A stretch of DNA of 64,000 nt from Candidatus Micrarchaeota archaeon (GTDB lineage Archaea > Micrarchaeota > Micrarchaeia > Micrarchaeales > CABMGC01), in the NCBI GenBank assembly GCA_021848065.1, contig JAJZNA010000014.1, positions 30,803 through 94,802 on the forward strand. The letters are read 5' to 3'. Position numbers and translations under genes: made by a program. The notes beneath the pieces are model-generated. The model was not told the DNA's origin. It saw only the letters and a program-made list of their open reading frames with translations, and ran no database searches. Positions 17,381 through 63,598 of this stretch are shown here, in pieces. The stretch's first letter is position 1. Each line of letters opens with the position of its first letter.

Positions 17381-17382
17381 TA

Positions 17383-45673: not shown

Positions 45674-45743
45674 GTTTAGGTTAATAAACGTTAATCAGAC
45701 ATCAATATATAATAAACAAGCTTATATTAACAAAGTGATTCGT

Positions 45744-46866: not shown

Positions 46867-47343
46867 ATGTCTATGGCAAAAAGCTCATCCAAGCTTCAAT
46901 CGAGCTTCGAACTGCTGCTGACCCTGTCGTTCGGGCTCGCCATACTCATACCTGTGATAATCGTGGCATTCATACAGATAGCCAATGCCAACACCTCTCT
47001 TTCTGCGATAGAGTCTCAGCAGGCTGCAAGCAAGCTATCGAGCGTAGCCACCCTTGTCGGCACGGAAGGCTTTCCTGCAAGGCAGCTGGTGCAGATAAAT
47101 GTGCCATCCGGCGTGGTTAACATATTCGTAGGCAATACCGTAAACGGCGTAGGTCACGAGATAATATTCGAGGTAGTATCTCCTCTGAACTCAAGCTACA
47201 TAACCACCTACACCCCTGTAAACGTGAGCGGCAACCTGGGCTCAATATCCTCCCAAGGCACTTACCTTATCAATGTCAGCGCACAGCCCCAGTGCCCAAA
47301 CAACGTGAATCTCGCATGCGTATACCTGAGGCCTGTGGTGTGA
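46867..47343 (+). CDS. prepilin-like (class III signal) protein, candidate structural pilin
   Basis: 158 aa. MSMAKSSSKL-QSSFELLLTLSFGLAILIPVIIVAFI is a basic N-terminus, Gln, an acidic residue at +5, then a hydrophobic helix. The remainder is a beta-rich Ser/Asn-rich domain. The start is 1 nt after the CBS gene stop. Confidence 0.6.
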   Translation: MSMAKSSSKLQSSFELLLTLSFGLAILIPVIIVAFIQIANANTSLSAIESQQAASKLSSVATLVGTEGFPARQLVQINVPSGVVNIFVGNTVNGVGHEIIFEVVSPLNSSYITTYTPVNVSGNLGSISSQGTYLINVSAQPQCPNNVNLACVYLRPVV

Positions 47344-47347
47344 GCTG

Positions 47348-50300
47348 ATGAGACTACAAATAGCGCTTGACTATCTTATCGTATTCTCATTTGTACTTTT
47401 CATCTTCGTCCTAGTTCTTGCTTCCATAGCAAGGCAGAGGGTGCTCGTGTCAAACGAGCAGACCTTCTCACAGCTGCAGCTTGTGGCCCAGTCTGTCGCT
47501 TCCGAACTCTCTTCGGCAGCCCAGGCTGGCAACGGCTACTCAGCATCAATACTCCTTCCGCCGCAGCTCAGCGTTCTGCAGTACAATATATACGTCACTA
47601 GGCAGGGGATGGTAATAGCATCTTCAAATACCCTGGGGCAGAATGTGCAGGCCACAGCATTCGGCATAGTACAGAATGTGGTATCAAATGCAAGCTACCT
47701 TTCAGGAAGCAAACTTTACTACCAGATACCCACGATAGAGAGCGGAGGGTACATGACCCTTCAGAACTCCTTCGGAACAATATGCATAGACTACACCTGC
47801 CCTTCAACCTCCTCCCAGGCAAGGCAGATCTCCCTTACAGACATTGTTGCGCATGGTTTCAGTTTCAATGGAAAGACCACCGCACTATATCTTCCAACCC
47901 CGGTGACGACCTCTACAAAGGAGTCTATAACCTTCTGGATAAAGACCCCGGTACCAGGCAAGTCCAACCAGTATGTAGTTGACCAGGGGGCATCATACTC
48001 CCCAAATAACAACTGGATAGACATCTCGCAGGGGCGCATAGTTGGCGGGCCATCGCTTACTAGCGAATGCGGCAGCAACCTGATACTCCAGCCCAATACA
48101 TGGTACTTCGTGGCCTACACCAGCTCAAGCTCGGTTAACATATACGTAAATGGAAGCCAGTCTCTAGGGTGTTCCATTTCCGGCACCACCGGGACTGTCC
48201 CTACCTCTCTTAACATAGGCCAGCTTGCAACTGGCTCCAGCAAGCTAAACGGCACCATAGCCGACATGCAGATATATGATGTCGCAATCTCTTCGCACGA
48301 GGTGTCAAAGCTTTATTCCGAAGGCATATCCGGGCAGCCTGTGGACTACTCCCACAACGTAGCATGGTACCAGTTCAATGGCAATGTGAATGACAGCAGC
48401 GGAAATGGAAACAACCTTACAACGACAGGCGTGCAGCTCTTTCCTGCCATAGCGCAGATACTTGCAAATGTCTACAACGCATCCGGGGTCCCCCTTCCCA
48501 ATGCAACTGTAGGCTTCGTAACCACATCCGGGTCATTTTCAACAGGAGCCTCTGCGTCTAGCCTAACCAATTCCAACGGTACGGCGCAGACATTCCTCAA
48601 TTCCGCAAACTCCAGCGATTATGCTGTTGTAAAGGCTGTCGCATTCAATGGCAACCAGTCCACTGCAAACAATCTGACTGCCTGGTGGCCGATGGTATAT
48701 GGCTCCGGAACCACTCTTTACGACCTCAGCTCAAGGTCTGATGCCAGCAGCAGACTGAACGGCAACATTGTGGGCGCATACTGGCCTTCCCCGACGTACG
48801 TCCTTAGGCTGTACGGAAGCACAGGCATAGTCAGCATACCGAGCACTTCAGGCCTGCAATCTAATCCGATCACAATATCTGCATGGGCAAGCTTCGAGCC
48901 ACCCACATCAGGACAGGATTTCGTGGCATCGGCGCCAGGTTCATGGGCATTCGGTGCGTGCACTGACAAGCTCGTAGTGTGCTTCTACAATCCGTCCGGA
49001 TCGCTTCAATACTCCAACACCATCTTAAATCCTGGACAGTGGTACATGCTATCTGAAACCTTATCAGGAAGCAATGCAATAGTCTATGTTGACGGGTCTC
49101 AAGTAGCCACCGGCACATCTGCTTCATACTTCTCAGGGAGCGCCATAGAGGTCGGAGGCCAGAGCGGCATGCCTTATTCATCCTCCCCGCCTTCCGGCCA
49201 GGCCATCCTTCCACAATCCTTCTTCAACGGAAGCATATCAAACCTGCAGATATACGGCTCAGCGATGTCTTCTACTGCACTCACCGCGCTCTATGATCGC
49301 GGCATAGGCGCCAGTCCAAACGGCGCAAGCCTGCATGGCTGGTGGCCACTGAACGGCAATGCAAACGACTACAGCGGCAAAGGGACCAACGGATCAATAC
49401 TGGGCAATGCCGGCTTCGTGAGGCTTCCTACATCAGCAGCGCAGGCAAGCTCTACATCCGCGCAGGTCCTCTCCGCAGGCTTCAACGGCAATTCCATGTA
49501 CATAAACGGCACGGGAATATATGCCTTCCCCATCTCTAATGCGCAGTGGATATATCCCAAAAGCTATGGCACAAGCGACTTTGAAGTCATAAGCGAATTC
49601 GATGGAGGTGGGCCAAATGCAGCGCCGTATGAGCTTGCGCTAAGGACAAATGGGGAGGTGGTTCTGTGGGACGGCAACACGAATCTCGTGAGCTCCTTGG
49701 TCGCACCTTTGGGCACGTGGAGTTTTGTAGGCTATACTCTTACCGCAAGCTCTGCAACCATATATGTCAATGGGAAGTCGCAAACCTTCTCACTGTCCAT
49801 AACTCCCACCGCCTCATCCAACCAATATTGGATATTGGGGTGGCAGTCGCGCTACACCACCAGGTATTTCAATGGCAATATGGCCAACGTGCAGGCATAC
49901 AATTCCACTCTGAGTTCTTCTCAGATGTCGCAGCTTTACCGCAGCGGCATAGCCGGTCTCCCGATAGCAGGCGCAAAGCTGGCTGGCTGGTGGCCGCTGA
50001 ACGGCGATACGAATGACTATGGCCTTAGCAATGAACCAGGAACCCCATACAATGGCATATCCTATAGCCAGGCAGTAAGCAGTGCGTATATAGCTCAGCC
50101 TCTATCCGGCTCGGGCCTCGTATTCAACGGCACAGGAAGCAATGTTGTGGTAACTGGCAACCTTGTTATAAATGGCCCATTCGCCGTGTCTGCCTGGGTA
50201 AACCCTTCGGCCTCATCTGGCAGGGAGGTAATAGCAGGCAAGCAGAACACCTTCCGGCTAGGCCTCGGATGGAATGGCAATTCCGAAGGCGACTTCTACG

Positions 50301-50644
50301 CGTATGTTGGTGGTACCCTTCTGGGCCCAGTATCCACCCCATACCCGCTTGATTACAACCAATGGAGCATGCTTACTGGGGTGTACAATGGCACCTACCT
50401 TACGCTGTATGAGGATGGCGTGCCAGTTAATACCATTGCGGCATCCGGATCTATAGCAACCAACTCCAATCCATTGGTGATAGGGGCATCCGAGACTTCC
50501 GGATATTCCTCGAATAGCTTCTCCGGTTCCATCGCAGGCATACAGGTATACAACACATCACTCACCTCGGCGCAGGTGTACCAGCTCTACAACACCGGCA
50601 CGCCGGCTTCTGCGTCTATAACCATTCCGCTGGGTGTTAGCTGA
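47348..50644 (+). CDS. giant prepilin-like surface protein with about four Laminin_G_3/ConA-like lectin modules
   Basis: 1098 aa. The N-terminus is MRL-QIALDYLIVFSFVLFIFVLVLASI. Repeated module ends are (M/L/V)Q(I/A/V)Y..(L/I)S..(Q/E)..(L)Y, and module starts are W(W/Y)(P/Q)(L/F)NG(N/D).ND(Y/S)SG. It also has an Ig-like insert and many N-x-S/T sequons. Confidence 0.7.
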   Translation: MRLQIALDYLIVFSFVLFIFVLVLASIARQRVLVSNEQTFSQLQLVAQSVASELSSAAQAGNGYSASILLPPQLSVLQYNIYVTRQGMVIASSNTLGQNVQATAFGIVQNVVSNASYLSGSKLYYQIPTIESGGYMTLQNSFGTICIDYTCPSTSSQARQISLTDIVAHGFSFNGKTTALYLPTPVTTSTKESITFWIKTPVPGKSNQYVVDQGASYSPNNNWIDISQGRIVGGPSLTSECGSNLILQPNTWYFVAYTSSSSVNIYVNGSQSLGCSISGTTGTVPTSLNIGQLATGSSKLNGTIADMQIYDVAISSHEVSKLYSEGISGQPVDYSHNVAWYQFNGNVNDSSGNGNNLTTTGVQLFPAIAQILANVYNASGVPLPNATVGFVTTSGSFSTGASASSLTNSNGTAQTFLNSANSSDYAVVKAVAFNGNQSTANNLTAWWPMVYGSGTTLYDLSSRSDASSRLNGNIVGAYWPSPTYVLRLYGSTGIVSIPSTSGLQSNPITISAWASFEPPTSGQDFVASAPGSWAFGACTDKLVVCFYNPSGSLQYSNTILNPGQWYMLSETLSGSNAIVYVDGSQVATGTSASYFSGSAIEVGGQSGMPYSSSPPSGQAILPQSFFNGSISNLQIYGSAMSSTALTALYDRGIGASPNGASLHGWWPLNGNANDYSGKGTNGSILGNAGFVRLPTSAAQASSTSAQVLSAGFNGNSMYINGTGIYAFPISNAQWIYPKSYGTSDFEVISEFDGGGPNAAPYELALRTNGEVVLWDGNTNLVSSLVAPLGTWSFVGYTLTASSATIYVNGKSQTFSLSITPTASSNQYWILGWQSRYTTRYFNGNMANVQAYNSTLSSSQMSQLYRSGIAGLPIAGAKLAGWWPLNGDTNDYGLSNEPGTPYNGISYSQAVSSAYIAQPLSGSGLVFNGTGSNVVVTGNLVINGPFAVSAWVNPSASSGREVIAGKQNTFRLGLGWNGNSEGDFYAYVGGTLLGPVSTPYPLDYNQWSMLTGVYNGTYLTLYEDGVPVNTIAASGSIATNSNPLVIGASETSGYSSNSFSGSIAGIQVYNTSLTSAQVYQLYNTGTPASASITIPLGVS

Positions 50645-51177
50645 TGAAGGGGCAATACTGGTCAATAGATATGGTATTCGCCATAATCGTGTTCACAGCC
50701 GCTCTAATCATACTGATAAGCGCATGGAGCAAGATCAACAGTGAATTTTCAACAGCATACGGATTCGGCATAGGGAGCATGCAGGCGCAGCTCCAGTCGC
50801 TACAGCAAAAAATAACCACCCCTGGATATCCTTCCGACTGGCTTTCTGTTGTGAATGTATCCAACGCCAACACCTGGCGTAATGTCAGCATAGGTTTGGG
50901 TAGCCAGAACGGCACCATCTCCGCGAGGAAGGCCATGGCCCTAATGGCGATGTCCAACACCAATTATCAGGCCACCAAGCAGGATATGGGGGTAGGATAC
51001 GACTACTACATAACTATATATTCGCCGGGCAACTACAACATATCTGTGGGAAGGAATCCGCTTGAAAGAAATGCAACGGCAATACAGTCTGCCACAATCC
51101 CTGTGATACTGTCCAACGGTGCAGTAGGTACAATGAGGATACTCGTATGGACTAATACTACGTTCGGTGTAAGCTGA
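50644..51177 (+). CDS. prepilin-like (class III signal) protein, candidate minor pilin
   Basis: 177 aa. MKG-QYWSIDMVFAIIVFTAALIILISAW. The start overlaps the upstream stop (TGATG). Confidence 0.6.
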   Translation: MKGQYWSIDMVFAIIVFTAALIILISAWSKINSEFSTAYGFGIGSMQAQLQSLQQKITTPGYPSDWLSVVNVSNANTWRNVSIGLGSQNGTISARKAMALMAMSNTNYQATKQDMGVGYDYYITIYSPGNYNISVGRNPLERNATAIQSATIPVILSNGAVGTMRILVWTNTTFGVS

Positions 51178-53489
51178 TGAAAGGCATAGTCTTCACCCTT
51201 GATGCTCTTTTCGCACTGATGATAACTGCGGCAGGCATATCCGTGCTGCTCTACTTCACGTACGTCACGCCTACCACTTCGTATACCCAGTACACGCTCT
51301 CAAGCTCCCTGCTAAAGGAGATGTCGCTGGCAAAGCTCAGTTCCATATCCGGCATACCTCTCGCCCTTGAGATGGTGAACCAGAGTGCGGCGTCAGGTCA
51401 GCCCTGGCACCAGGTACAGAAAGATGCGCAGTACAGCGGCGGGAACCCCACAGGGCCGTCACTTGGCACCGTAGCCTATACTGTAAATGCCCCAAATCCC
51501 ATAACGAACGGCACCATACTTGCCGGATACGGTGATGTATACTTTGCATCCGGAAACATCATGTATGCAATAAACGCCTCTACCGGCATCACCAGGTGGA
51601 CTTCCGGGTCCCCGTACAACTCCGTATGGTCACCTGCCTCCGGCTACTACTCGCCCCCGATAGTTGGCGCATTGCTCTATCGCGGCATGGTCATCTATGC
51701 CACAGATGCGAACATAATGGCCCTCAACGCGCTCAACGGCAGCGTCGTATGGGCTTCTACTGTTCCCTACACAATTGCAATTGGCGGAGAGCAGGAGCCT
51801 GACGGGGATGAATATCCCCCGATGATGTTCGAGTCCAATGGAAAGATAATAACCGGAACATCCGACGCATGCGGAGACGCCAGCGGCATAACACTCTACG
51901 CTTTCAGTCCAGGTAACGGCACGATAATAGGCAATGGCACTGGCATACTCTCGTCTGCAGGGCTTCTTGCCAGATATTCTGCGGCTTACGGGAGCCAGAT
52001 CGTTTCAACAGTCTTCTCGTGCAATACCTACCAGTTCACAGGGCTGCAGATGCTTACTGACATCTACAACAATACGTATGCTGCAGCAAACGTGTGGGGC
52101 AGCTCCGGCAGCGGCGCCGCATCTTTCGAGAGCGATGTGGCAATATACTCGAACACATTTGCCGTGGGGCAGGGTAACCATGCGAACCTTCTGAGCTCTT
52201 CAGGGAGCCTGATAAGCAGCGTCACCGACGCCAATTCCACCCTTGAGTCAGGAGTAAGCTCTTACGGGGGCGTTTTCGCATTCCAAGGCACATCTGCGGT
52301 TCTGGCACTCAACTCCACAGGATCGCAGCTATGGTATGCCCGGTCACAAAGCCACACTGCGCTCCTAAACCAGACACCTATCCAAAGCCTCCAGAACTTG
52401 TACGAGATCTGGGGAGACGGGTATGTGACAGAACAGAACCGGAGCACCGGCACGTTCACCGGCTCTGTAGCAATTCCATACTCCCTAACAAACACCAACA
52501 TAAACCCGCATATGGCGCTCGCATACGGCAAACTCTTTGCCAGCGTAGGTAGCCACCTTATTGCGTTCGGGACGTGCGCAGCATCCTCAAACTCATCAAT
52601 ACTCACCGACATAGGCACCATGTACATAAACAACGAGGGCAGCTGCGCCGACTACCTTCTGAATTCGCTTTCCCACACCGAGAACAGCACCTTCACTGTT
52701 AACAATCAGTCCATACTCACAGTTTCCGATTTCAACGGAGCAAACAGCGTGGTAACAATACCCTATTCCCAAAATCTATCCCTTTCCAACAACTTCACCG
52801 TGAGCATATGGTTCTACAGCGCCCTCCCACCAACATCTACCTTCTCTTCAGAACTCATAGACACCATTCAGAAGGTCAATGTCCGTACTATGGACCTCAG
52901 CCTAATAGGCAACAATGATGGCGCATCAACAGGCATACACGGGGACATAGGCAATGGCGCTTCATGGCTCTCCCAGTCGGTAAACTATCCGTTCACGTTC
53001 AGCCAGGATACCTGGTACAATCTCGTGGCCGTGTACACCCCATCTTCATGGACGCTATACATAAATGGGAATGCCATCTCCGGCACGTACTCGGGCAGCC
53101 CAAGCCTACTGGACGGGACATCCAATATACAGCTTGGGTCTGGGTCAGGTTCAAACCAATTCAACGGGGCGCTCTCGGATATGCAGATATACAACACCTC
53201 GCTCACCACGGCGCAGGTGGCACAGTTATACCGCGGCGGAATAAACGGGGGGCCAGTCAGCACGAGAATAGCCGCGTGGTTCCCGCTCGCAGGAGATGCG
53301 AACGGATATTCAAGCCAGCAGTATTTCCCCGGATTCACTTCTGGGGTTACATATAGCGATGCAACCAATGCGCAGCCGGGCCTGTCCGGTTCATATTCGA
53401 TATCGTCCCAGACTGTGCCGGTTGTCCTGTTTAATTATTCCACTGGGGATTATAAGCTGTATAATGTTGGGGTGTATACATGGAGATGA
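51177..53489 (+). CDS. prepilin-like protein with PQQ-type beta-propeller and one Laminin_G_3 module
   Basis: 770 aa. MKG-IVFTLDALFALMITAAGISVLLYF. PQQ-like repeats (GDVYFASGNIMYAINASTGITRWTS, GMVIYATDANIMALNALNGSVVWAS) are followed by a LamG end motif, LSDMQIYNTSLTTAQVAQLY. Confidence 0.7.
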   Translation: MKGIVFTLDALFALMITAAGISVLLYFTYVTPTTSYTQYTLSSSLLKEMSLAKLSSISGIPLALEMVNQSAASGQPWHQVQKDAQYSGGNPTGPSLGTVAYTVNAPNPITNGTILAGYGDVYFASGNIMYAINASTGITRWTSGSPYNSVWSPASGYYSPPIVGALLYRGMVIYATDANIMALNALNGSVVWASTVPYTIAIGGEQEPDGDEYPPMMFESNGKIITGTSDACGDASGITLYAFSPGNGTIIGNGTGILSSAGLLARYSAAYGSQIVSTVFSCNTYQFTGLQMLTDIYNNTYAAANVWGSSGSGAASFESDVAIYSNTFAVGQGNHANLLSSSGSLISSVTDANSTLESGVSSYGGVFAFQGTSAVLALNSTGSQLWYARSQSHTALLNQTPIQSLQNLYEIWGDGYVTEQNRSTGTFTGSVAIPYSLTNTNINPHMALAYGKLFASVGSHLIAFGTCAASSNSSILTDIGTMYINNEGSCADYLLNSLSHTENSTFTVNNQSILTVSDFNGANSVVTIPYSQNLSLSNNFTVSIWFYSALPPTSTFSSELIDTIQKVNVRTMDLSLIGNNDGASTGIHGDIGNGASWLSQSVNYPFTFSQDTWYNLVAVYTPSSWTLYINGNAISGTYSGSPSLLDGTSNIQLGSGSGSNQFNGALSDMQIYNTSLTTAQVAQLYRGGINGGPVSTRIAAWFPLAGDANGYSSQQYFPGFTSGVTYSDATNAQPGLSGSYSISSQTVPVVLFNYSTGDYKLYNVGVYTWR

Positions 53490-56236
53490 AAAATGGCATA
53501 GCTTCGGGGAAGGGCATGAAAGCCCAGATGTTCTCACTCACGGCGCTCATATTCGTGCTACTCATGGTAGTCGCCCTCCTGCTTTTTGTCGTGATGGGGA
53601 TAGGGTACGACAGCGTGTCCGAGTCTTCAATACTTTCAGGCAGCACGACAAACTACGGAAGCCTGCTCTCCAGCAGCGCAGACTCGTTCGCATACACCAG
53701 CGCATCAACGGCGCTCTCCACGCTATTCACTTACGAGTATAATTCCTCATTGAGGGGAACCAATTTCATATCAAACCTCAGCGCATTCATGGTACCGCTT
53801 ATGGAGAACGGAACCATCCCCAATGTCACGGGCGGCTCGATAGATGGAAACTACATAAGCTCGCTTATGGGCAATGCCACTTTCGCTGCCTACAATTCAG
53901 GCATAAGCTCGGTGACAGGGATGTCATCAAAACAGGTGTCCATAACCCAGACAAAGCCAGTAATATCCCAGGAAAGCCCGTACTCAATAACAATAAGGTA
54001 CACTGAAAACGTTCTCATAAACACATCAACAGGGGTATACCACTTCAATATACCTGTAAACGTCTCAATGCCCCTCAACGGCACTCCCGACCTGTTCTAC
54101 GCCCAACAGGGTGTCTACAGGCAGATGCGCTTCTCAAGCCTGCAGGGACTTGTGAAGGTAATAGGCAACGAGTACGCAACTACGGGAAATAGCAGCGGAT
54201 TTGTATACGGCACGGTGATTCAGATCCCATCGGGGGCTACATCGTGCAGCGCAGTTCCGAGCTCTCTTTCAGTAGCTCCATATGACAAATTCGTCATACT
54301 GGCAACTGCCAACGCCTTCGGAATAACCGGAGGCGCAAGCACGTGTGCAAGCCAATTCGGCGGCCTTGTGGCACAGCTTATTGACACTCCGCCAAGTACC
54401 CCGTACCTGCTCTATCCTTCAGGATCGGACATACTGAACTACCTTACTACAGGGAGGCAGGTGCTGCTTTACGGTCCAGGCCTCTCCGTCCTCAATGTGA
54501 GCGGGCTTGATTCGGCAGCTGCTGCGGGAGATTACTTCACATCCCCATTTACGCCTTCATATCTCCAAAGGGTTACAGGGAATTTCAGGACTGGGTCACC
54601 AAACGGCATATTCACCCTCTTTCCTTATAGCCGCCAGGTCCTGGCACTTAATGGCAGTGCTCCTGCTTCAGCCGTAACTCTCGGGGAGCAGCAGAAAGGA
54701 ATAACTTCCTACACTGTAGCTGCATGGGTATATCCTGCTTCGCAATCCGGGCTCATAGAGAGTGACAGGGGCAGCGGCGCAGGCCACAGCCTCACTCTGG
54801 GATTCGGCGGCTCCCTAGGATGCCTGGCGCCTCAGGGCAGCTTCTTTTTTGGAGACAGCAGCGACGGTGTGGGCCTCGGTGTAGAATCCAGTGCCCAGTA
54901 TCCTTCTAACACCTGGTATTATGTGGTAGGCACATTCAGCGGCAAGTCTGGGACAGCGGTAAGTCCCTCGCAATTCAAGCTGTACATAAATGGCAATGAG
55001 GTTCAGACAAATTCGTGGTGCAGTGCAGGCGCAGACACGGCGCCTCTTACCGGCCTCGGGGGAATATCAATCGGCTCGGGCTCCCCTTCTGTTACTGAAT
55101 CAGGCAGCATCTCCGGGTATGTTGCAAATCTCCAGATATACAACTCCACCCTCAGCGCGGCGCAGATAGCAAACCTCTACCAGCAGGGCGTCGAAGGACT
55201 TCCAATATCCAGTGCCAAACTTCAGGGATGGTATACTCTCAACGGCAATCCAAACGATTATAGTGGAAATCAATACTCAAACTCAACTTCAGTAAATACT
55301 TCCTATGTAACCATTCCCGACTATACCCGCGATGCCGCATACGTGCAGCAGTACCCGTCAAATACATATGCCATACCCGGCCTTCTGTCATGCAACAACA
55401 ATGCTCAGTGCGGCGCCCCGGGCAAACCCCAGGTGTACCTGTCCGATGCGCCTTTGGAGCTCGGCAATTACGGGATCACTGCCCCATATTTCGACGGCCT
55501 GACAAGCAACGTCATGCTGCCTTCGGCCGCAAGACTCAGCCCTCCTTCATTTGCGGTATCATTCTGGGTAGATGAGCCCGTCGCCCAGTCATACTGGACA
55601 TCCATAGTGGACAAAGGGCGCGCAGAATCAAACGTGCTCTTGGAGGACTGGTATTTCCTAACCCCCAATACAAAGTGCGGCAATGGGCAGGGGATAGACT
55701 TCGGTGCCGGAATTTCAGGCGCCTCGTTCAAGGAGCTGTGCTATAACTGGGGCAACCCCGGGTGGCACTATGTTGTAGGGGAATTCAGCAACACCCTGCT
55801 GACAGAGTACCTCTATATCGATGGTACAGAGGTGAACAGCACCCTCCTGACATCGAGGTTCTCAGAGGAGTCATATCCGATAATGCTTGGCGCACGAAGC
55901 CCTTCCAGTACCAATACCCAGGCTTATTTCCTTGGCTACATTTCAAACCTGCAGGTATACAACACGACCCTTACTGGTTCGCAGATAATGGGCATGTACC
56001 GCGCAGGAATCACCGCGCCGCCTCTTTATAACACAAGCAACCTTGCCGGATGGTGGCCTCTGAGCGGCAACCTGAACGACTACAGCGGCTATAGGGATAA
56101 CGGCCAGGCAAATTCCCTTTCGTATGCATTCATACAGGCGAATTACTCCACAGCGTCATACAACTATACCGGCCTCTCCACCGCCGGCGCCGTATCGCGC
56201 GAGTGGCAGTCCCTAGGATTCCCTGCTCCTCCTTGA
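53480..56236 (+). CDS. prepilin-like giant surface protein with two Laminin_G_3 modules
   Basis: 918 aa. ...GKGMKA-QMFSLTALIFVLLMVVALLLFVV. LamG ends are VANLQIYNSTLSAAQIANLY and ISNLQVYNTTLTGSQIMGMY. LamG starts are GWYTLNGNPNDYSGN and GWWPLSGNLNDYSG. Confidence 0.7.
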   Translation: MEMKNGIASGKGMKAQMFSLTALIFVLLMVVALLLFVVMGIGYDSVSESSILSGSTTNYGSLLSSSADSFAYTSASTALSTLFTYEYNSSLRGTNFISNLSAFMVPLMENGTIPNVTGGSIDGNYISSLMGNATFAAYNSGISSVTGMSSKQVSITQTKPVISQESPYSITIRYTENVLINTSTGVYHFNIPVNVSMPLNGTPDLFYAQQGVYRQMRFSSLQGLVKVIGNEYATTGNSSGFVYGTVIQIPSGATSCSAVPSSLSVAPYDKFVILATANAFGITGGASTCASQFGGLVAQLIDTPPSTPYLLYPSGSDILNYLTTGRQVLLYGPGLSVLNVSGLDSAAAAGDYFTSPFTPSYLQRVTGNFRTGSPNGIFTLFPYSRQVLALNGSAPASAVTLGEQQKGITSYTVAAWVYPASQSGLIESDRGSGAGHSLTLGFGGSLGCLAPQGSFFFGDSSDGVGLGVESSAQYPSNTWYYVVGTFSGKSGTAVSPSQFKLYINGNEVQTNSWCSAGADTAPLTGLGGISIGSGSPSVTESGSISGYVANLQIYNSTLSAAQIANLYQQGVEGLPISSAKLQGWYTLNGNPNDYSGNQYSNSTSVNTSYVTIPDYTRDAAYVQQYPSNTYAIPGLLSCNNNAQCGAPGKPQVYLSDAPLELGNYGITAPYFDGLTSNVMLPSAARLSPPSFAVSFWVDEPVAQSYWTSIVDKGRAESNVLLEDWYFLTPNTKCGNGQGIDFGAGISGASFKELCYNWGNPGWHYVVGEFSNTLLTEYLYIDGTEVNSTLLTSRFSEESYPIMLGARSPSSTNTQAYFLGYISNLQVYNTTLTGSQIMGMYRAGITAPPLYNTSNLAGWWPLSGNLNDYSGYRDNGQANSLSYAFIQANYSTASYNYTGLSTAGAVSREWQSLGFPAPP

Positions 56237-56249
56237 CCCACCCTGCACT

Positions 56250-57254
56250 CTATGTGGGTGCAAATGATGAGAACAGCCCTGCTATGAAGAGCGATACCAC
56301 CAGGAATATAGCGAGCCCTGCTATGATGAACACTGGCATGTACTTTATTCCCCTGAAAGGCACTCCAGTGGCTATTGCCGCTATGATGAAGGATCCGAAC
56401 CCTGTTATGACGAATATGGCCGCCAGGGAGAAATAGTAATAGCCCTGCGGTGTTATCAGGGGCTTGGACAGCTTTATGAATGACACTCCGACCGACGGGA
56501 GGCTCGATGCCGTGTTCAGGGAGATCCTCGACCATACTGTGGATGTGACTCCTATCATCTCGTTGGTGAGGCCATAGAGCGCCGGCGCGCCTATTATCGC
56601 CGCGAAGGCTATGAATATCGTGTACATGAAAAGCTGGCCTGCGACCTCTTTCTGCACCATGTGCTGGTTCCTCATGTCCTTGGCTATCTGGTTGAGCAGG
56701 TCTGCCATCCCTCCTCCGTACTGCTGGGCCTCCACAATGACCCTCACTGTCCTCTTCAGGGTCGGGGACCTGTATTTAGCGCCAAGCTGGGTCAGTACGT
56801 GGGCCATGGTCTCTCCGGAATAAAGCTGCCTGCCCATTATCGTGACATCCTCTGAGAAATACTTGAAATCCGGCCTCACTGCCATCACCAGGGCCTTTGA
56901 CATTGACACACCGCTCCTCATGTTGGCTGCGGTTAGTTGCAGATAATCCGGAAGCACGTCCTCTACGAAGCTCTTCCTCTGGTCTATCCTGAATTCCAGC
57001 AGGGCGTAAAGCACCACTTCATATATCACGCTCATCCCAATGCCGGCGAGTAGTGCCAGGCCTGCATTAAGCTTGAGCCCTATCGAAAGGCTGAAAGAGA
57101 CCATTATGGTTATTGCTACCCATCCCAGGATGGCTCCTGCAAGGAACCTGTTGACGCTAGTCCTGACTCCTGCAAGGTCGAGCTCTGTTGACACGAACCT
57201 TGCAACGTTCCTTCCTACCAACCTTTCGAATACTATTGTTGCCATGAACATCAA
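56250..57254 (-). CDS. T2SS-F/TadC/FlaJ-like filament platform membrane protein (second half-size paralog)
   Basis: 334 aa. The T2SSF-type cytoplasmic helical domain (LPDYLQLTAANMRSGVSMSKAL...GETMAHVLTQL...) is flanked by TM helices. Overlaps the upstream paralog by 4 nt. Confidence 0.75.
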   Translation of the reverse strand: MMFMATIVFERLVGRNVARFVSTELDLAGVRTSVNRFLAGAILGWVAITIMVSFSLSIGLKLNAGLALLAGIGMSVIYEVVLYALLEFRIDQRKSFVEDVLPDYLQLTAANMRSGVSMSKALVMAVRPDFKYFSEDVTIMGRQLYSGETMAHVLTQLGAKYRSPTLKRTVRVIVEAQQYGGGMADLLNQIAKDMRNQHMVQKEVAGQLFMYTIFIAFAAIIGAPALYGLTNEMIGVTSTVWSRISLNTASSLPSVGVSFIKLSKPLITPQGYYYFSLAAIFVITGFGSFIIAAIATGVPFRGIKYMPVFIIAGLAIFLVVSLFIAGLFSSFAPT

Positions 57255-58255
57255 CTCGCGAAGCTGGGCCTTGAAGAGGACACCATCCTCAGGAACACGA
57301 ACTGCAGGAATGCCAGTCCCAGGACCGCCATTATCAGCGTGTTATTGTCTATCGTGAATATGCTTATGAAAGTCGACATTATGGCAGCAACAGCTATGCC
57401 CATGCTCGGGAATATCACTCCGAAGAGCATGTAGAACATGGCTATCGCGTTGAGCCTCTGCCCGTATCTCCTTAGCTCTATGACCCTCTCCTGGCTGACA
57501 TCGTTTATGACCTCCTGTATCGAGCTGATGACATCAGATCCCACCTTTATGCTGGTGCTCGCCTGGAGCATCAGCTTCTTGAACGTCGCCGACCTGCTCT
57601 TCTCGCTTACCTCGTCTATTGCCTGGTCCATCGGCATGCCTAGCTGCACTCTGTCTATTATCTTCTCGAACTCCCTGCTTGCTGCCCCATACCCCACGCT
57701 CACCGTGGCCATCGCATTGAACAGCGGCACCCCGGACCTCATGCTTACTATCATGTCCCTGGCTGCGAAAAGCACATCCTTCTCAACATCATTGCCCACT
57801 GACTTTGTCTTCCTTATCGGATAGGACATGAGCATCTGGTATCCCATGAAGTACGCTGCAGCGGCTCCAGCCACAGCGAACAATGCGAACACCGTTTCAA
57901 GCTTCAGCACAAACACTGCAATGACTCCAACCACTAGAACTGCCACTGCCGCAATCCTTGCCTTGTTCATTGAGCTGGCCATGTACTGCTCTGGAGTCAT
58001 CTTCATGCCTATCTCCACCAGCGCAGGCGCGAGGTTTGCCAGCATCTTCATCTGGAGGGCGCTGCGCTTCATTGTGGTCTGTTTTGCTGGCCTTGCAGCC
58101 TGGGCCTTTGGCTTCCCAGCAGTAGGTGTGGGGGTCACTTGCTCCTTGACTACCTTGTAAATTGGCTTTGCCTTTATCTTGAAGAACAAGAACCTTCCAG
58201 GCTTCGTAAACCCGACTATCTGCCTGTTTACGATGGCCTTCTTTTTGAACAGCAT
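57251..58255 (-). CDS. T2SS-F/TadB/FlaJ-like filament platform membrane protein (first half-size paralog)
   Basis: 334 aa. T2SSF-type domain (DVLFAARDMIVSMRSGVPLFNAMATV...GMPMDQAIDEV...) plus TM helices. Confidence 0.75.
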   Translation of the reverse strand: MLFKKKAIVNRQIVGFTKPGRFLFFKIKAKPIYKVVKEQVTPTPTAGKPKAQAARPAKQTTMKRSALQMKMLANLAPALVEIGMKMTPEQYMASSMNKARIAAVAVLVVGVIAVFVLKLETVFALFAVAGAAAAYFMGYQMLMSYPIRKTKSVGNDVEKDVLFAARDMIVSMRSGVPLFNAMATVSVGYGAASREFEKIIDRVQLGMPMDQAIDEVSEKSRSATFKKLMLQASTSIKVGSDVISSIQEVINDVSQERVIELRRYGQRLNAIAMFYMLFGVIFPSMGIAVAAIMSTFISIFTIDNNTLIMAVLGLAFLQFVFLRMVSSSRPSFAS

Positions 58256-58266
58256 TATACCAATAC

Positions 58267-58878
58267 CTACTTTATACCCAATTTAATTAATACTTCCTTG
58301 AGCTTCTTGTCCCTAAGGGCCAGAATGCCTGTGTCGGCTCCCTGAGGCGCCTTGCGCACCGCCAGGGATTTCGAAAGCCCCGAAACCTCCATCCTAATGA
58401 TGCCCATATGCTCCTTGTCGAAAGCCCCTGTATCTATCCCTTCCATTATCTTCTCAAGCTCGCTAAGCTGGTCGCTTGGCGACAGCCCGGGAAGTACAAG
58501 TCCCTTGCCCGGCTTGGCCTCGGTAACCTTTGCCATGACGCTCCCTATGCTGGATAGCGCATCCTCGAGTTCCTTTGCTGCGCCTCCAATCTCCCTGATT
58601 ATGTCCTCCCCAGCCTTGGCTCCAGCCTTCGGCACTGCGGCCACGTGCCTTGCAGCAGCCTCCCTTACCTCCCTCTGGTAGGGTTCCTGGAAAGACCTTC
58701 CCCTGCCTTCTAGCCTTTCCACGAAGTTGACTGTGCTCACTATCCCTTTTGTATCATACTCCCTGAGCCTGACCTTGTCTTCCGCCTCGTCTATGCTTAT
58801 CTTGATGGACCTCTGCCCGGTGTCCTGGGCCTCCATCTTGGAAATCATATCCACTGCGCCAGAATAATCCATAATCAA
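58267..58878 (-). CDS. hypothetical soluble protein in the filament-assembly operon
   Basis: 203 aa, acidic, with no TM helix, no P-loop and no family recognised. Its start abuts the ATPase stop. Confidence 0.5.
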   Translation of the reverse strand: MIMDYSGAVDMISKMEAQDTGQRSIKISIDEAEDKVRLREYDTKGIVSTVNFVERLEGRGRSFQEPYQREVREAAARHVAAVPKAGAKAGEDIIREIGGAAKELEDALSSIGSVMAKVTEAKPGKGLVLPGLSPSDQLSELEKIMEGIDTGAFDKEHMGIIRMEVSGLSKSLAVRKAPQGADTGILALRDKKLKEVLIKLGIK

Positions 58879-60387
58879 TCACTTTATCAGGTCTGGTGTA
58901 TACTTGACATTCTCCTTCGCAAGTGCCACCACCTTGTCCTTGTTCTTGTAATACTGGGCGATGACGTTTCCGGCATCATTGACATTTGTCACGTCATTTG
59001 CCACCATCCAGTTGAGTATCATTGATTTCTCCGTTATGTCGTCCATCAGCTCCTTGTACGTGTAGCCTCCGTATAGGGATATCAGCTCAGAGAGCCTTGA
59101 GAGGTTCGAGACCTGCGCGAATGTATCGTTTCTCAGGTTCCACCTGTACAGCACGTTGGCGTCTCCGCTGTTAAGCATCTCTCCAAGCTCAAGAACCCTC
59201 CTTATGCCCAGCCTCCTGTGCCTGAATAGTGATATTATGCCTCCTATGGAGTTGAGCATAACCTTTGGTATGTCTATCGGGGGGTTCGTCATCCTTACTA
59301 CAGTATCCTGTACGTTGTCTGCGTGGATGGTGCCGTACACCGCGTGACCCGTGTGTATTGCCTCGAAGAGAGTCTGGGCGTCGTACTTCGTCCTGATTTC
59401 TCCGACAAGCATTATGTCCGGCCTCTGCCTCAGCGCGTTTATCATGAGGTTGTACAGGCTTATCTCTCCCTTCCCTTCTGCGTTTGCCTGCCTGGTCAGC
59501 ATCGGCACCCACTGCAGGAAGTCCGGCAATGTAAGCTCCCTGGTCTCTTCGATGGATATTACCCTGTGGTTTGGAGGCATGAATATTGACATGGCATTAA
59601 GGAAGCTAGTCTTTCCGCTTGCTGTCCCTCCTGAAAGCACGAGGCTGATCTCGTTCTGCACGCACACCCATATTATGGATGCTATCTCTGCCGATGTCGA
59701 ATGCGACTTTATCAGCGCAGGCATGGTCCAAGGGTTCTTGGAGAACTTCCTTATTGTTATCGTGTTCCCGCTCTGCGACACTGGATATAACGTGGCGTTT
59801 ACTCTTGAACCGTCAGCCAGCTCTGCGTCCATGAGCGGCGAGAGCGTTGTTATCTGCCTACCGACCCTCCTGCCTATTGCCTCGGCATGGTCGTATATGG
59901 CCTCTTCGTTGTAAAGCTTAAGGTTGGTCTTGCACCATGCGAACTTCTTGTGGAAGACCCAGACGTAGTCCTTAGACCCGTTGACGGCTATCTCTTCAAG
60001 ATTCTCGTCGGCAAGGAGGACCTCAAGGTCCCCAAGCCCCAGCATTATGTTTATTATGTACGCTATCAGTATGGCCTTGACCTGCGGCTTGGTGCCGGGC
60101 AGGTACTTGTCTATGACGACAGATGCGGCGTTTATGTACTTCTTGTTGAGGTCTGCCACATATTCCGTGTCTGTTATCTTGGTGGTGTCAACCGGCACGA
60201 GCTTGAGCAGCTCTCCCCTCAGCGACGTAAGAAGTATCTTGGTGGCATCTCCGACCCCGGGCACATTTATCTCGTAACTCGGTACGAATTCCCCCTTGTC
60301 CACGATGCGTATCTTCGCCTCAATACCGCTGGCGGTGAGGCTGTAGTTAGTAAGCTCTTTGGAATTTTCAGCGACCTGCTCAGCCAT
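58879..60387 (-). CDS. GspE/FlaI/TadA-type type IV filament (secretion) ATPase
   Basis: 502 aa. Walker A SGGTASGKTS, Asp box ISIEETRELTL, Walker B RQRPDIMLVGEIR, His box GHAVYGTIHA. Confidence 0.85.
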   Translation of the reverse strand: MAEQVAENSKELTNYSLTASGIEAKIRIVDKGEFVPSYEINVPGVGDATKILLTSLRGELLKLVPVDTTKITDTEYVADLNKKYINAASVVIDKYLPGTKPQVKAILIAYIINIMLGLGDLEVLLADENLEEIAVNGSKDYVWVFHKKFAWCKTNLKLYNEEAIYDHAEAIGRRVGRQITTLSPLMDAELADGSRVNATLYPVSQSGNTITIRKFSKNPWTMPALIKSHSTSAEIASIIWVCVQNEISLVLSGGTASGKTSFLNAMSIFMPPNHRVISIEETRELTLPDFLQWVPMLTRQANAEGKGEISLYNLMINALRQRPDIMLVGEIRTKYDAQTLFEAIHTGHAVYGTIHADNVQDTVVRMTNPPIDIPKVMLNSIGGIISLFRHRRLGIRRVLELGEMLNSGDANVLYRWNLRNDTFAQVSNLSRLSELISLYGGYTYKELMDDITEKSMILNWMVANDVTNVNDAGNVIAQYYKNKDKVVALAKENVKYTPDLIK

Positions 60388-61651
60388 TCACATCCTCCTT
60401 TCCCTTTCCTGTTCCTTCATCACTCTGCGCGTTTTCCGGTGCAATCGACTTGAACTTATCCCCAATGGCTCCGGCGGCCTTCCTGAGATTCTCTACGGTC
60501 TCGCTAGCACTCTGCGTCCTGTTCTTGAGCGCATTCTTCCTCATCTGCTTCTCCGCAGGCCTCCTCCTGGCCGATAGGGCCTTGGCGTCCTGCATCATGG
60601 TGCTGAGGCTCTTAAGTAGCATGTTGCGCTGTTCCGTAGCCGCGTCCAGGTCCTTCTTTATGGACAGCAGGGTGTCGTTTATGCCGGACATGTCCCCGAG
60701 CTGTTTCTTGAGCTCTTCAGACTTTGATTTCAGTTCTACAAGATCCTTTCCTGCGACGTCGCTGAGCCTCTTAACTTCCGACATCGTCTTGTCGAACTCA
60801 TCGAATATCGCCTTCCGCTTGTTGTCAGCATTCCTTATCAGCACCTCAGAATTCCTCTTGTAGTCTTTACCGGTCTTCTCGTACTCCCTTATCTGCTTCT
60901 CCTCAAGGTTGACTATCTGCACAAGCTGCTCAGTCTTGTCCCTTATGTCTCTGCGCATCTCCAGCGCATTCTTCCTGTACCTGTATACTAGCTGGTCCAG
61001 GGCCTTGGACATCTCGTCCATGTTTGCATTGTAAAGGTTAAGCCTCCCCCTTATGTCCTCGGCTATTCCCCTTGCATTGTTAGTGTCAAGAGTAAAGCCA
61101 GAAAGCATGGTGGAGTACTTCTGCAGCGCGTCGAACTCTTTCTGCATCTGCGCCCTTATCTCCTCAAGGTGCTTCGCGTTGGTCTCCATCTTCTTCTCGA
61201 AAGTGTCTATCCTTGCCTGCACCGAGTTTACTTTGTCGAGGAATGGCTTGACGTTCTTGTACTTCGTCTTGAACATCTCGTCTACGGTGGATATGGACTT
61301 GCTGAACTGATCTATCCTTGAAGATATCTGGTTCACCGCAGCAATCTGCGAGGCTATGTCCGCCTCTATTCGCATCTGTTCAGACTCCTCGCTTACCTTG
61401 ACTTCGGCCTCAGTAGGTGCGGCCACGCCCTTCCCTGCCGGCGCGCCCCCTTCCATTAGCGAGAGGAACATCCTGCCGGACCTGTTGACTATCCTTATGA
61501 CGTTTGCTTTCTCCAGTATATTTGACCATTCTATTATTGTTGCTTCACCAACGCCCAGCACTGAAGCTACCACACTTATATTTGTCTCTCCATGCTCCTT
61601 GAGGTAGGCAACCAGACTATCTATGCTTGTCTTAATCTCCTGGTCGGCCAT
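60380..61651 (-). CDS. winged-helix N-terminal domain plus long coiled-coil protein
   Basis: 423 aa. The N-terminal 65 aa look like a wHTH (ISVVASVLGVGEATIIEWSNILEKANVIRI). The rest is heptad-rich, Lys/Glu-rich helix. Overlaps the ATPase start by 8 nt. Confidence 0.55.
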   Translation of the reverse strand: MADQEIKTSIDSLVAYLKEHGETNISVVASVLGVGEATIIEWSNILEKANVIRIVNRSGRMFLSLMEGGAPAGKGVAAPTEAEVKVSEESEQMRIEADIASQIAAVNQISSRIDQFSKSISTVDEMFKTKYKNVKPFLDKVNSVQARIDTFEKKMETNAKHLEEIRAQMQKEFDALQKYSTMLSGFTLDTNNARGIAEDIRGRLNLYNANMDEMSKALDQLVYRYRKNALEMRRDIRDKTEQLVQIVNLEEKQIREYEKTGKDYKRNSEVLIRNADNKRKAIFDEFDKTMSEVKRLSDVAGKDLVELKSKSEELKKQLGDMSGINDTLLSIKKDLDAATEQRNMLLKSLSTMMQDAKALSARRRPAEKQMRKNALKNRTQSASETVENLRKAAGAIGDKFKSIAPENAQSDEGTGKGKEDVNG

Positions 61652-61693
61652 TGGATCAACGATAATAAATTCATGGGGTTTAACTTATTAAAC

Positions 61694-63598
61694 CTAACTA
61701 CCTCGCGATGATTTGGTCATGTCCGACTGATATGCATAGTCGTTTTCGTAGATGAGCGCCGAAACGTATTGCGGGCCAGAGACGTTGTACACTTCCAGGT
61801 ATAGGTCATATGTGCCGGAGCCGTTAAGCCTGAGCACATTTATGTTCAGGGAGCACGGGAACTGGCACTTCTGCGTGCCATTCATGAGGCTTGTGTTGTG
61901 CAGCCCGTAGAACTGTATGTTTCCGATGCTGTTGTACGCCCCCAAGAGCACCCACGGGCTTCCGACATATCCACGGCTGTATGTGAGTGTTGCCGCATAG
62001 TGGAGCGTGTTCCCGGATATGTATGCGGACTGCCCAGACACCGAGAATCCTGCATGTCCCATATAAGACGCGTGAGCAACGATGACCACTGCAACTCCCG
62101 CTGTGAAGATGGCGGCTATCGAACCCAGCAGCGCGTCCAGGCGCAGCCTGCTCCTCCCAACCTCTTTCCTGAACCACCCTCCATTCCATCTGCCTTCCTT
62201 GAAATGGATGACTACCACCAGCAGCGCGGCGAAGAAGAAGTAATACGCTGCCTGCGCGTGCGAAAGGAAGAGGAAGGGTATCATTCCGAATACCGGCACA
62301 AGCCTCTTCTCGTTGAAGTAAAGGAATGCCAGGGCAAGAGCAGCGCATGAAAGCATGAAAAGGTATGCAAAATCTGCAAGAGGCATGTTCAGGTGCGTGA
62401 ACAGGAAGAACCCTATCCCAGCCTCTGCGCTTGGAAGCAGGTATCCCAGGGTCTGGAACAGCGCATGGAAGTATGCGGAAGGGCCCGTAGCAATGAAATA
62501 GCCGTTGATAGCCACAAACACCGCCAACGCCCCAGCAGCATCGCGTATTCCCTTTCGCATCCCGTATGTGTTGAACGAGTACAGCAGCATCAGTATCACC
62601 GCGAACCACAGCTCCTGCTGCATGGAGAGTGCGAGCCCAAGGAACAGCCATGCACTACGCGATTCAAGCCTGGCATAAGCAACAACCATGATGGCAAGCA
62701 TCAGGTATACCTGCAGGGAGAGGAGCATTCCCGGTATCAGGAAGATCAGCGCGCCCATCAGCAGATACCTAGGCCTAAGCGGGTCCTTGTCGTCTATGCT
62801 GCTCCATATTGCAAGGAGCATGATGAATATGAATACTATGCTCTCCGCAGGCATGTACACGTGCTCGAGGCTGTAGAGGGTTGGCTGCGCCAACGCATAA
62901 AATGGCACGAACGAGAGGACAAAGAGTGCAGGGTAGTCCATGCTTGCGGCTATATTGCCAGAAGAGAGTATGGTTATGCTGGTGCTGTTGTTTATCTGCG
63001 CAGCCGAGAGCACTCCTGCGGCAGAGGCTGCATAGGGGTTGGAGCCAGCGAGGAGTGCCTTTGCCCCAAGCATTGTGATTATCTCCTCATCGTTAGCAAC
63101 ATATGACAGGGCCAGCCTGGATTCGAAGAAGCCTATTATGAGCATAAGTGCGATTGCGTATACAAGGATGCCCATCCTCCTGTATCTCCTGATCCGATAG
63201 AGGTATGTGCCAAGGGCCATGAGGAAGAAGATTATGACATACGGTATGGATGTGAGCATAGGGTAGACAAGGCTTCCGAGCAGTGCCTCAACGTTTCCGA
63301 AAGCTGCAATGCTCAATGCTATGGAAACCAATGCAAGCGCAATGTATGCTGCCGATGCCCTCCTGAACAGCGCCGAGTACCTTCCCACGCCCCCTTCCGC
63401 CCCCCTGCCAAGGCCGTAAAGGCACGCAAGCGCTATGAACAGTACGTAGCATGAAAGCTGCAGCGCCTGAACCGCACCTGGAACAAGCTGGGCAGGGTAC
63501 CTGAGGGCGCCTATGACTAGCAGGAAAAGAACCGCAGTGAACATCAGCCCGTCCATGCCTTTGCGCATCTTCAAGTATCCTCCCTGCCGTGCCACCAT
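61694..63598 (-). CDS. large polytopic membrane protein with C-terminal extracytoplasmic domain (possible GT-C-like glycosyltransferase)
   Basis: 634 aa with about 14 hydrophobic helices, then a 130-aa soluble tail carrying sequons. There is no WWDYG (AglB) motif and no GxGD peptidase motif. The functional guess rests on topology only. Confidence 0.5.
   Translation of the reverse strand: MVARQGGYLKMRKGMDGLMFTAVLFLLVIGALRYPAQLVPGAVQALQLSCYVLFIALACLYGLGRGAEGGVGRYSALFRRASAAYIALALVSIALSIAAFGNVEALLGSLVYPMLTSIPYVIIFFLMALGTYLYRIRRYRRMGILVYAIALMLIIGFFESRLALSYVANDEEIITMLGAKALLAGSNPYAASAAGVLSAAQINNSTSITILSSGNIAASMDYPALFVLSFVPFYALAQPTLYSLEHVYMPAESIVFIFIMLLAIWSSIDDKDPLRPRYLLMGALIFLIPGMLLSLQVYLMLAIMVVAYARLESRSAWLFLGLALSMQQELWFAVILMLLYSFNTYGMRKGIRDAAGALAVFVAINGYFIATGPSAYFHALFQTLGYLLPSAEAGIGFFLFTHLNMPLADFAYLFMLSCAALALAFLYFNEKRLVPVFGMIPFLFLSHAQAAYYFFFAALLVVVIHFKEGRWNGGWFRKEVGRSRLRLDALLGSIAAIFTAGVAVVIVAHASYMGHAGFSVSGQSAYISGNTLHYAATLTYSRGYVGSPWVLLGAYNSIGNIQFYGLHNTSLMNGTQKCQFPCSLNINVLRLNGSGTYDLYLEVYNVSGPQYVSALIYENDYAYQSDMTKSSRGS

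Follow-up and report, generated by a model that had tools for sequence, protein, structure and literature searches.

A Micrarchaeota locus joining a type IV filament motor to pilin-headed laminin-G proteins: a probable Epd-type adhesion pilus

What would an archaeon assemble with a filament motor whose neighbouring genes encode lectin-like proteins of up to 1098 residues, each with a pilin-like N-terminus? The question is raised by a locus on contig JAJZNA010000014.1 of a Candidatus Micrarchaeota genome (assembly GCA_021848065.1), lying within the 64,000-nucleotide stretch of DNA that was analysed here as a whole and is called the window. A first-pass annotation, made from the letters and a list of open reading frames (ORFs), had described it as an Epd/Tad-like filament locus with giant multi-LamG proteins. 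We consider it probable that the locus specifies an Epd-type type IV filament ("system 1", Makarova clade 1) with modular lectin-pilins for host or surface adhesion. The two platform genes by the ATPase gene, the heads with Gln at +1 and Glu at +5, and the DPANN organism that hosts the locus fit clade 1/system 1.

The genes are lettered A to E on the plus strand and F to K on the minus strand, and sizes and coordinates are given as window positions:

45735-46865, plus strand: CBS-domain gene, four CBS domains and a C-terminal domain of about 100 residues (Pfam CBS, 5.5e-35)
46867-47343, plus strand: A, 158 residues
47348-50644, plus strand: B, 1098 residues
50644-51177, plus strand: C, 177 residues
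51177-53489, plus strand: D, 770 residues
53480-56236, plus strand: E, 918 residues
56250-57254, minus strand: F, 334 residues, TadC/FlaJ-type platform protein with one T2SSF domain
57251-58255, minus strand: G, 334 residues, second TadB/TadC-type platform protein with one T2SSF domain
58267-58878, minus strand: H, 203 residues, highly charged cytoplasmic protein, product of a conserved accessory gene that separates the ATPase gene from those of the platform
58879-60387, minus strand: I, 502 residues, GspE/FlaI/TadA-family assembly ATPase
60380-61651, minus strand: J, 423 residues, possible N-terminal winged helix-turn-helix (wHTH) domain and a long coiled coil
61694-63598, minus strand: K, 634 residues, polytopic membrane protein

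The five co-directional plus-strand ORFs have exactly the positions and sizes (158, 1098, 177, 770 and 918 residues) first ascribed to them, and the row does converge on the minus-strand operon across a 13-bp gap between the stop of E (56236) and that of F (56250). Within the row, A and B are separated by 4 nucleotides, B/C and C/D overlap in ATGA, and D and E share 10 nucleotides; on the other strand F and G overlap by 4 nucleotides. No bacterial-type terminator was found in the gap between E and F, where there is only a weak hairpin (z = -2.1), and a TATA-like box lies in the 42-nucleotide spacer upstream of J. The CBS-domain gene had been overlooked as the probable first gene of the pilin operon. 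Since its stop is 1 nucleotide before the start of A, and since an AT-rich, TATA-like stretch sits 5' of the CBS gene and not 5' of A, the operon most likely starts at 45735. In each of the ten related loci that extend to this position, a CBS gene lies ahead of A; its product is likely to be a regulator. The genes of the locus are real: the same arrangement is present on an independent contig of a metagenome-assembled genome (MAG; 99% ATPase identity) and in dozens of relatives.

The minus-strand operon carries the machinery of the type IV filament superfamily. The GspE/FlaI/TadA-type ATPase, the two T2SSF platform proteins and the 203-residue protein without a family, all proposed in the first-pass annotation, are borne out by the Pfam searches: I matches T2SSE (PF00437, 1.3e-30) and has the Walker A motif GGTASGKT, F and G match T2SSF (PF00482, 2.4e-14 and 2e-13, respectively), and H gave no significant Pfam match (best E 0.062, far short of the cutoff) and no NCBIfam match. 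F has five hydrophobic segments. The best solved relatives of I in the Protein Data Bank (PDB) are Archaeoglobus fulgidus GspE (2oap, 7.8e-66), FlaI (4ii7, 8.7e-58) and CpaF (8rkd, 6.5e-46). J was first described as a wHTH/coiled-coil protein; the coiled coil stands, with coiled-coil-type matches only over the protein, and the wHTH is plausible, the N-terminal 80 residues giving sub-threshold helix-turn-helix matches (E 0.01-0.04; HTH_DeoR/MarR, E 0.02-0.03). An archaellum was considered and rejected: I scores about 255 bits (255.6) against the FlaI equivalog model, whose cutoff is 550, and no archaellin or Fla accessory family was matched in Pfam or NCBIfam. As in Epd-type loci, two platform genes, F and G, lie beside the ATPase gene.

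On the plus strand, the three giant proteins B, D and E are built of Laminin_G_3/ConA-like modules, as had been read from their translations, with strong Pfam matches to PF13385 (B 2.5e-60 in four stretches, D 2.2e-17, E 1.3e-30 in two stretches). With jackhmmer, seven modules were delimited: residues 175-319, 490-644, 711-860 and 928-1077 in B, 521-681 in D, and 394-563 and 673-836 in E. B thus consists of a head, an N-terminal module of about 170 residues, the four LamG modules and one immunoglobulin (Ig)-like segment (Big_1, 8.5e-7, under the Pfam cutoff), and E of a head, a domain of about 350 residues without a family and its two LamG modules. The beta-propeller noted in one of the giants is the PQQ/BamB-like region of D (PQQ_2, 4.3e-7, barely over the Pfam cutoff). 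B, D and E are accordingly heads fused to LamG, Ig-like or beta-propeller modules, which is how modular pilins are defined. PDB sequence searches with B and E gave no matches, and A matched nothing in Pfam or NCBIfam.

The composition of the five products fits that of extracellular proteins of an acidophile. A to E contain 6-9% charged residues, 37-47% Ser, Thr, Asn, Gly and Tyr, and 1.6-3.4 N-glycosylation sequons per 100 residues, and the charged fraction of H, I and J is 22-33% (32% in H). A, with 6.3% charged residues, has four sequons and a C-terminal Cys pair.

All five N-termini have Lys or Arg, one residue, and then a hydrophobic stretch of at least 20 residues; among the other ORFs of the window such heads occur in polytopic membrane proteins only. 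The heads, with a slash at the predicted junction, are:

A: ..SKL/QSSFELL, Gln at +1 and Glu at +5; orthologues [KR]-x/QSS[FLV]ELL (n = 12), with L, I, G, A, S or Q at -1
B: MRL/QIALDY, Gln at +1 and Asp at +5; orthologues [KR]-x/QI[AS]xEF
C: MKG/QYWSID, Gln at +1 and Asp at +6; 28 orthologues K[AG]/QFWSFD
D: MKG/IVFTLDA, Asp at +6, without Gln at +1; 25 orthologues KG/F[IV]FTLDA
E: ..GKGMKA/QMFSL, without an acidic residue; 22 orthologues K[AG]/Q.. or KG/ILLTL, without an acid at +5 or +6

The junction of Lys or Arg, any residue, and Gln or a hydrophobic residue is kept strictly within each family, across species whose ATPases are about 60% identical, and so is the acidic residue in the helix, whose position is +5 in A and B, +6 in C and D. 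Gln at +1 with Glu at +5 is the signature of the EppA-processed Epd pilins of Methanococcus and is not found in the pilins of Sulfolobus or Haloferax (Nair et al., PMC3875500). The Epd signature (Gln at +1, acid at +5) is present in A (QSSFE) and in B (QIALD here, QIxxE in orthologues). In the related loci, 53 of the 58 LamG ORFs with intact 5' ends have a Lys/Arg-x-hydrophobic head, a loose criterion that 26% of other long ORFs also pass. In AlphaFold2 models the hydrophobic stretch extends into a predicted helix of 50-58 residues; that of C, built with 40 homologues, has a mean predicted local distance difference test (pLDDT) score of 85.8 and shows a helix at residues 9-58 followed by an alpha/beta head. 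A plain Sec signal or anchor would hardly account for an invariant Gln at the junction and a conserved acidic residue inside the helix. The long predicted helix, the strict family junctions and the signature in A and B thus agree with the first-pass view that these N-termini are not ordinary Sec signals.

A distant Micrarchaeota locus (49% ATPase identity) encodes, directly after its platform genes (L056:14195-14755), a 186-residue protein without a Pfam family that starts MNGKKKG/QAAMEYLMTYGW and has a textbook Epd/Flp-like pilin head, KKG/QAAMEY.

The C family, which carries no Pfam name, is large, with 892 representative clusters at E <= 1e-3, almost all of 160-190 residues, and its 73 close homologues are all named "hypothetical". 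C itself matches DUF7285 and DUF7287 weakly, distant members of its family give full-length but sub-threshold matches to DUF7287, and the D head matches DUF7288 (E 0.011); a literature search on DUF7285 to DUF7289 found no paper. The N-terminal helix of D is related to that of C (hhalign, 93%). The five genes as recent duplicates of one another could be ruled out, hhalign finding no relationship outside the helices.

The relatives of the locus place it in one phylum. A scan of species-representative genomes retrieved 67 loci, nearly all in Micrarchaeota MAGs, one of them the contig with the 99% identical ATPase (L002, CAZLPL010000007.1), and a 101-kb metagenome contig in ENA encodes the ATPase without any change. 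Homologues of I at 64-88% identity were, where named and among the matches listed, almost all from Candidatus Micrarchaeota. By these ATPase homologues the organism is one of the Candidatus Micrarchaeota (DPANN) of ARMAN-2 type, in line with the earlier guess of a DPANN-type episymbiont. ORFs were called in all related loci and labelled with phmmer. Among 65 related loci, J was present in 55, H in 45, G in 51 and F in 46; J was always directly upstream of the ATPase gene, and H, in each of its 45 loci, always in the same position between the ATPase and platform genes. One or more convergent LamG ORFs were found in 29 of the 38 related loci with at least 3 kb of sequence beyond F, so that the giant ORFs do co-occur with the ATPase and T2SSF genes in relatives, as the first-pass annotation would have it. 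The usual set in LamG-bearing loci is the full E<D<C<B; a shorter variant, C<B<A<CBS, was seen in four loci, and a metagenome scan with A retrieved contigs with the order CBS-A-B-C-D-E.

The two operons differ in how fast their products diverge. When the window proteins were compared with their orthologues in relatives, the ATPase was 61-81% identical, the platform proteins 42-70%, D and E 25-43%, and B about 30% over partial alignments; E was 28-42% identical where the ATPase was 61-81%, and A 59-62% identical where the ATPase was 63-67%. A, the most conserved of the pilin-like genes and roughly equal to the ATPase in conservation, may be a structurally constrained core subunit. The much faster divergence of B, D and E than of the motor suggests that they are fast-evolving interaction surfaces.

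From these data the following mechanism is proposed. The products of the minus-strand operon (J, the ATPase I, H and the platform proteins G and F) would form an assembly motor in the membrane, and the plus-strand operon (CBS, A to E) would provide what the motor assembles, namely five different pilin-like proteins. Their short basic leaders would be cut off by a prepilin peptidase whose gene lies elsewhere, whereupon the ATPase and platform would pull the N-terminal helices from the membrane and pack them into the filament core. A, small and most conserved, and C would serve as core or minor subunits, A being the candidate core or major subunit and C probably a minor pilin. B, D and E would carry their LamG/ConA-type lectin arrays, in D together with the propeller, at or near the filament tip, where the arrays could bind glycans of a host cell or surface multivalently. 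E, which like GspK has no acidic residue in the helix, is by this analogy a candidate distal or tip subunit.

With the Epd pilus of Methanococcus maripaludis (clade 1) the locus shares an ATPase gene with two platform genes, several pilin-like genes in an operon and heads with Gln at +1 and Glu at +5. It differs from Epd in its lectin modules, which, though analogous in role, are PF13385 instead of DUF2341 and number up to four on one pilin-headed protein of about 1100 residues, in the residue at -1, which is variable here and not Gly, and in the acid at +6 in C and D and the lack of one in E. None of a nine-transmembrane (9-TM) EppA peptidase, which Epd loci often include, a FleN/MinD ATPase or a major pilin of about 70 residues was found in the locus. 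Large ConA-like (DUF2341) proteins, predicted to be tip adhesins, have been described in clade-1 loci (Makarova et al. 2016, PMC4858521), and system 1 of the type IV filaments (TFF) has been reported in methanogens and DPANN (bioRxiv 10.64898/2026.04.22.720090).

Within the same phylum, 'Ca. Mancarchaeum acidiphilum' Mia14 has a locus, MIA14_0170-0177, with the order ATPase-x-TadC-TadC-"secreted component", which its authors placed in a Methanococci/Methanothermobacteria/Thermococci group (Golyshina et al. 2017, PMC5498576). They also remark that LamG jellyroll proteins are expanded in Mia14, "some linked to type IV pili loci". This architecture matches I-H-G-F-E, orthology being drawn from architecture alone, and because it is identical to that of the present locus we infer that ATPase I belongs to clade 1 (arCOG01819). 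Unlike the present analysis, the Mia14 paper lists the adjacent genes as secreted components and not as pilins, and the conserved set of five families, their heads, the CBS gene and the numbers of modules are absent from it.

Among the modular pilins of bacteria, PF13385 provides one of the 15 commonest architectures (Raynaud et al. 2021, PMC8179133), and several representative examples come from Candidatus (uncultured) lineages. As in Streptococcus sanguinis PilC, which has a ConA-like lectin, a pilin head carries a grafted module with predicted tip exposure and ligand binding. The bacterial proteins have the IPR012902 motif (G/F or M...E5, with N-methylation), are processed by PilD and usually bear one extra module, whereas the motif here is archaeal, three giant modular pilins are encoded side by side, and the canonical globular module of a pilin could not be confidently modelled in B. 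A looser parallel is offered by PilY1 with the minor-pilin tip complex of type IVa pili (T4aP) and by GspH-K of the type II secretion system (T2SS): four or five pilin-like proteins are encoded together, one member has a beta-propeller (D) and one lacks the acidic helix residue (E, cf. GspK), and a role in assembly priming and adhesin display is proposed. This is an analogy; PilY1 is not itself a pilin, and no sequence relationship was detected.

Several observations weigh against an Epd-type pilus. The window contains no small Epd-type major pilin of about 70 residues, and no match to Peptidase_A24 was obtained with F, G, K or the six polytopic ORFs of the window outside the locus. Prepilin cleavage sites seldom have Leu at -1, as A and B of this genome do and where their orthologues have G, A or S; PF04021 was matched below threshold and by B orthologue heads only (E 0.12-0.31), and Pfam scans of isolated N-terminal peptides gave no match for the A, C and E heads from the window itself. 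The likeness that hhalign finds among the five families is limited to the helices. Foldseek of the C model against the PDB returned no significant match, only ribosomal uS3-like noise (E > 1e-3, TM score about 0.2), and the model of B 1-175 (helix 2-59, then beta-strands) has low confidence (pLDDT 56.6), since the homologue search with this segment gave three matches and hence an alignment of four sequences. The ARM-1 locus (L045) has no adjacent LamG genes, a cryo-electron tomography study of ARM-1 mentions no more than thin filaments, possibly archaeal pili, and the literature holds no experimental evidence for Micrarchaeota pili of this origin.

Two of these points have precedents elsewhere. 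The major pilin of Methanococcus, where Epd pili form filaments, is encoded away from the locus (PMC3875500), and so is that of Mia14, MIA14_0118. Mia14 has a single prepilin peptidase, MIA14_0570, likewise encoded away from its pilus loci (PMC5498576). A search for a peptidase among polytopic ORFs, both in the window and on the contig adjoining it, turned up an M48 peptidase, an MFS transporter, a P-type ATPase and an archaeosortase-like protein, the last being a 498-residue, 9-TM protein at 39864-41360 on the minus strand (Exosortase_EpsH, 8.5e-14), and no A24 peptidase, in keeping with the first-pass remark that none is visible in the window.

A 7-TM gene upstream of J in relatives was also considered as the prepilin peptidase and rejected, as it encodes an M50 site-2 protease (S2P) and not an A24 enzyme. 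In all five relatives examined for it (L033:7754-8512, L036:7923-8636, L040:7902-8636, L047:6929-7678 and L058:7843-8538), the Peptidase_M50 gene (E about 1e-11 to 2e-10) is the next gene upstream of J and shares its strand. About 15 further relatives have an ORF of similar size (228-269 residues) at this place; the window lacks the gene. Pilins and other single-pass N-in proteins resemble S2P substrates in topology.

Three other explanations were ranked below the pilus. The strongest of them is a display device like the bindosome of Sulfolobus solfataricus (BasEF, BasABC), or a pseudopilus, in which a short envelope-embedded stub of A and C would orient the LamG proteins for glycan capture or a Velcro-like contact, and no extended pilus would be formed. 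The bindosome resembles the present locus in combining a GspE-type ATPase, a platform protein, small pilin-like proteins and large carbohydrate-binding proteins with class III signals, which depend on the system to work at the surface, and it provides a precedent for large non-pilin cargo with such heads (PMC4858521, PMC3875500). The missing small pilin and the bulk of three of the five subunits, too large for a homopolymer, suit such a device as well, and the whole of I can be aligned with the BasE model. The score is 131 bits, far under the 1000-bit cutoff, however, and the bindosome belongs to clade 4I (Sulfolobales), has a single platform gene and displays sugar-binding proteins of ABC transporters, whereas the cargo here is LamG and the platform genes are two; identity with the bindosome was rejected on this score and cargo. 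The locus type, with two platforms and the Gln +1/Glu +5 heads, is that of the Methanococcus pili, and a major pilin may be encoded elsewhere. On balance a stub instead of a filament seems unlikely.

We think it decidedly less likely that A to E are ordinary glycosylated surface proteins with uncleaved signal anchors, inserted by Sec/YidC independently of the ATPase and merely encoded beside pilus genes. The DPANN literature mostly treats LamG proteins as Sec substrates (PMC9563170), and the peptidase missing from the window, the Leu at -1 in A and B and the class III profile matches, all below threshold, would be expected of such anchors. They would hardly explain the invariant junction Gln and the conserved acid inside the helix, nor the synteny with the motor in 29 of 38 loci and its phylum-level spread, and the orthologues have canonical KG/Q or KA/Q junctions.

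Archaea are not known to have type II secretion systems. A role confined to polysaccharide scavenging by the LamG/ConA modules, or to T2SS-like protein export by a pseudopilus, with no part in cell-cell adhesion, is highly improbable: although PF13385 belongs to a "ConA-like lectin/glucanase" superfamily and the reduced metabolism of Micrarchaeota calls for external substrates (PMC5498576), no glycoside-hydrolase family was matched in B, D or E (Pfam, NCBIfam) and no candidate secreted substrate is encoded in the locus.

Returning to the Epd-type pilus, its limit on the far side of J had been drawn too widely. K, at first counted as a member of the filament operon, gave no Pfam, NCBIfam or PDB match and is found in the closest relatives only; it is on the opposite strand in L004, L006, L007 and L009 and inside the neighbouring membrane-protein cluster in L006, L007 and L009. 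As its conservation and orientation vary among relatives, K was rejected as a pilus component, and it probably belongs to that cluster. A GT-C glycosyltransferase was another candidate for K, an impression without tool support, and was dropped.

The cluster itself is a run of polytopic membrane-protein genes divergent from J-I, at 63823-64000 of the window and beyond (L001 1-6565). It encodes proteins of 125, 248, 442, 403, 593 and more than 369 residues, none with a family above threshold. The first, of 125 residues, matches DUF3852 just under the cutoff (5.7e-5) and the TrbC/VirB2 pilin family at 0.025, and two of three orthologues again gave a weak TrbC match. The cluster is kept beside J-I in about 12 close relatives, with seven or eight polytopic proteins in the closest, and possibly forms an apparatus of conjugation or Ced type. 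The J-ATPase pair also borders on the cluster in L011-L014 and L064, there without adjacent platform or pilin genes; in these and in L015 and L017 the pair (ATPase 67-68% identical) is followed by DUF373, a TRM5 methyltransferase and others, with no H, G, F or pilin genes.

Because J-ATPase is divergent, in the closest relatives, from a cluster headed by a VirB2/TrbC-like protein and is paired with it without platform or pilin genes in five to seven genomes, it is conceivable, if quite improbable, that the pilus motor is half of a composite contact apparatus, one ATPase module serving both a lectin-tipped filament and a conjugation- or Ced-like membrane conduit. If true, the filament would capture the host and the conduit would move DNA or metabolites between symbiont and host.

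Other features of the window are listed for completeness:

4000-8400: low-GC island (37-39% against about 50%), probably a type II restriction-modification unit that is mobile; it encodes a DDE transposase (4889-6109), an N6/N4 DNA methylase (6604-7536) and, at 7526-8401, a MamI-like restriction endonuclease
17375-20242, plus strand: complete 23S rRNA gene of archaeal type, flanked by neither a 16S nor a 5S gene, so that the rRNA genes are unlinked; the ORFs inside it are spurious
23457-25013, plus strand: 518-residue Ser/Thr/Asn-rich protein without a family match, a probable surface glycoprotein, whose ordinary short Sec-type signal contrasts with the long pilin-type heads of A to E
43964-44643, plus strand: MazE/AbrB-type antitoxin (83 residues) overlapping a PIN-domain toxin (142 residues), where the GC content is lower, shortly before tRNA-Cys and the pilin operon

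Part of this picture was already known: ConA-like adhesins in clade-1 loci were reported in 2016, the linkage of LamG genes to pilus loci of Micrarchaeota in 2017 and PF13385 in bacterial modular pilins in 2021. New here are the conserved set of five head families, the Epd-type signature on LamG giants, the CBS gene and the contrast in evolutionary rate. The locus also supplies an archaeal counterpart to the lectin-bearing modular pilins of bacteria. The gain is incremental, since the locus type and its LamG linkage were reported in 2016-2017.

The molecular basis on which DPANN episymbionts recognise and hold their hosts is largely obscure, and the locus offers concrete candidates in Micrarchaeota: a set of five pilin-headed genes, three of them with LamG modules, served by a motor that is 61-88% conserved in most of the retrieved relatives while the lectin proteins diverge fast. 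Co-cultures in which these candidates can be tested exist, one of Mia14 and Cuniculiplasma and one of Ca. Micrarchaeum harzensis and its Thermoplasmatales host.

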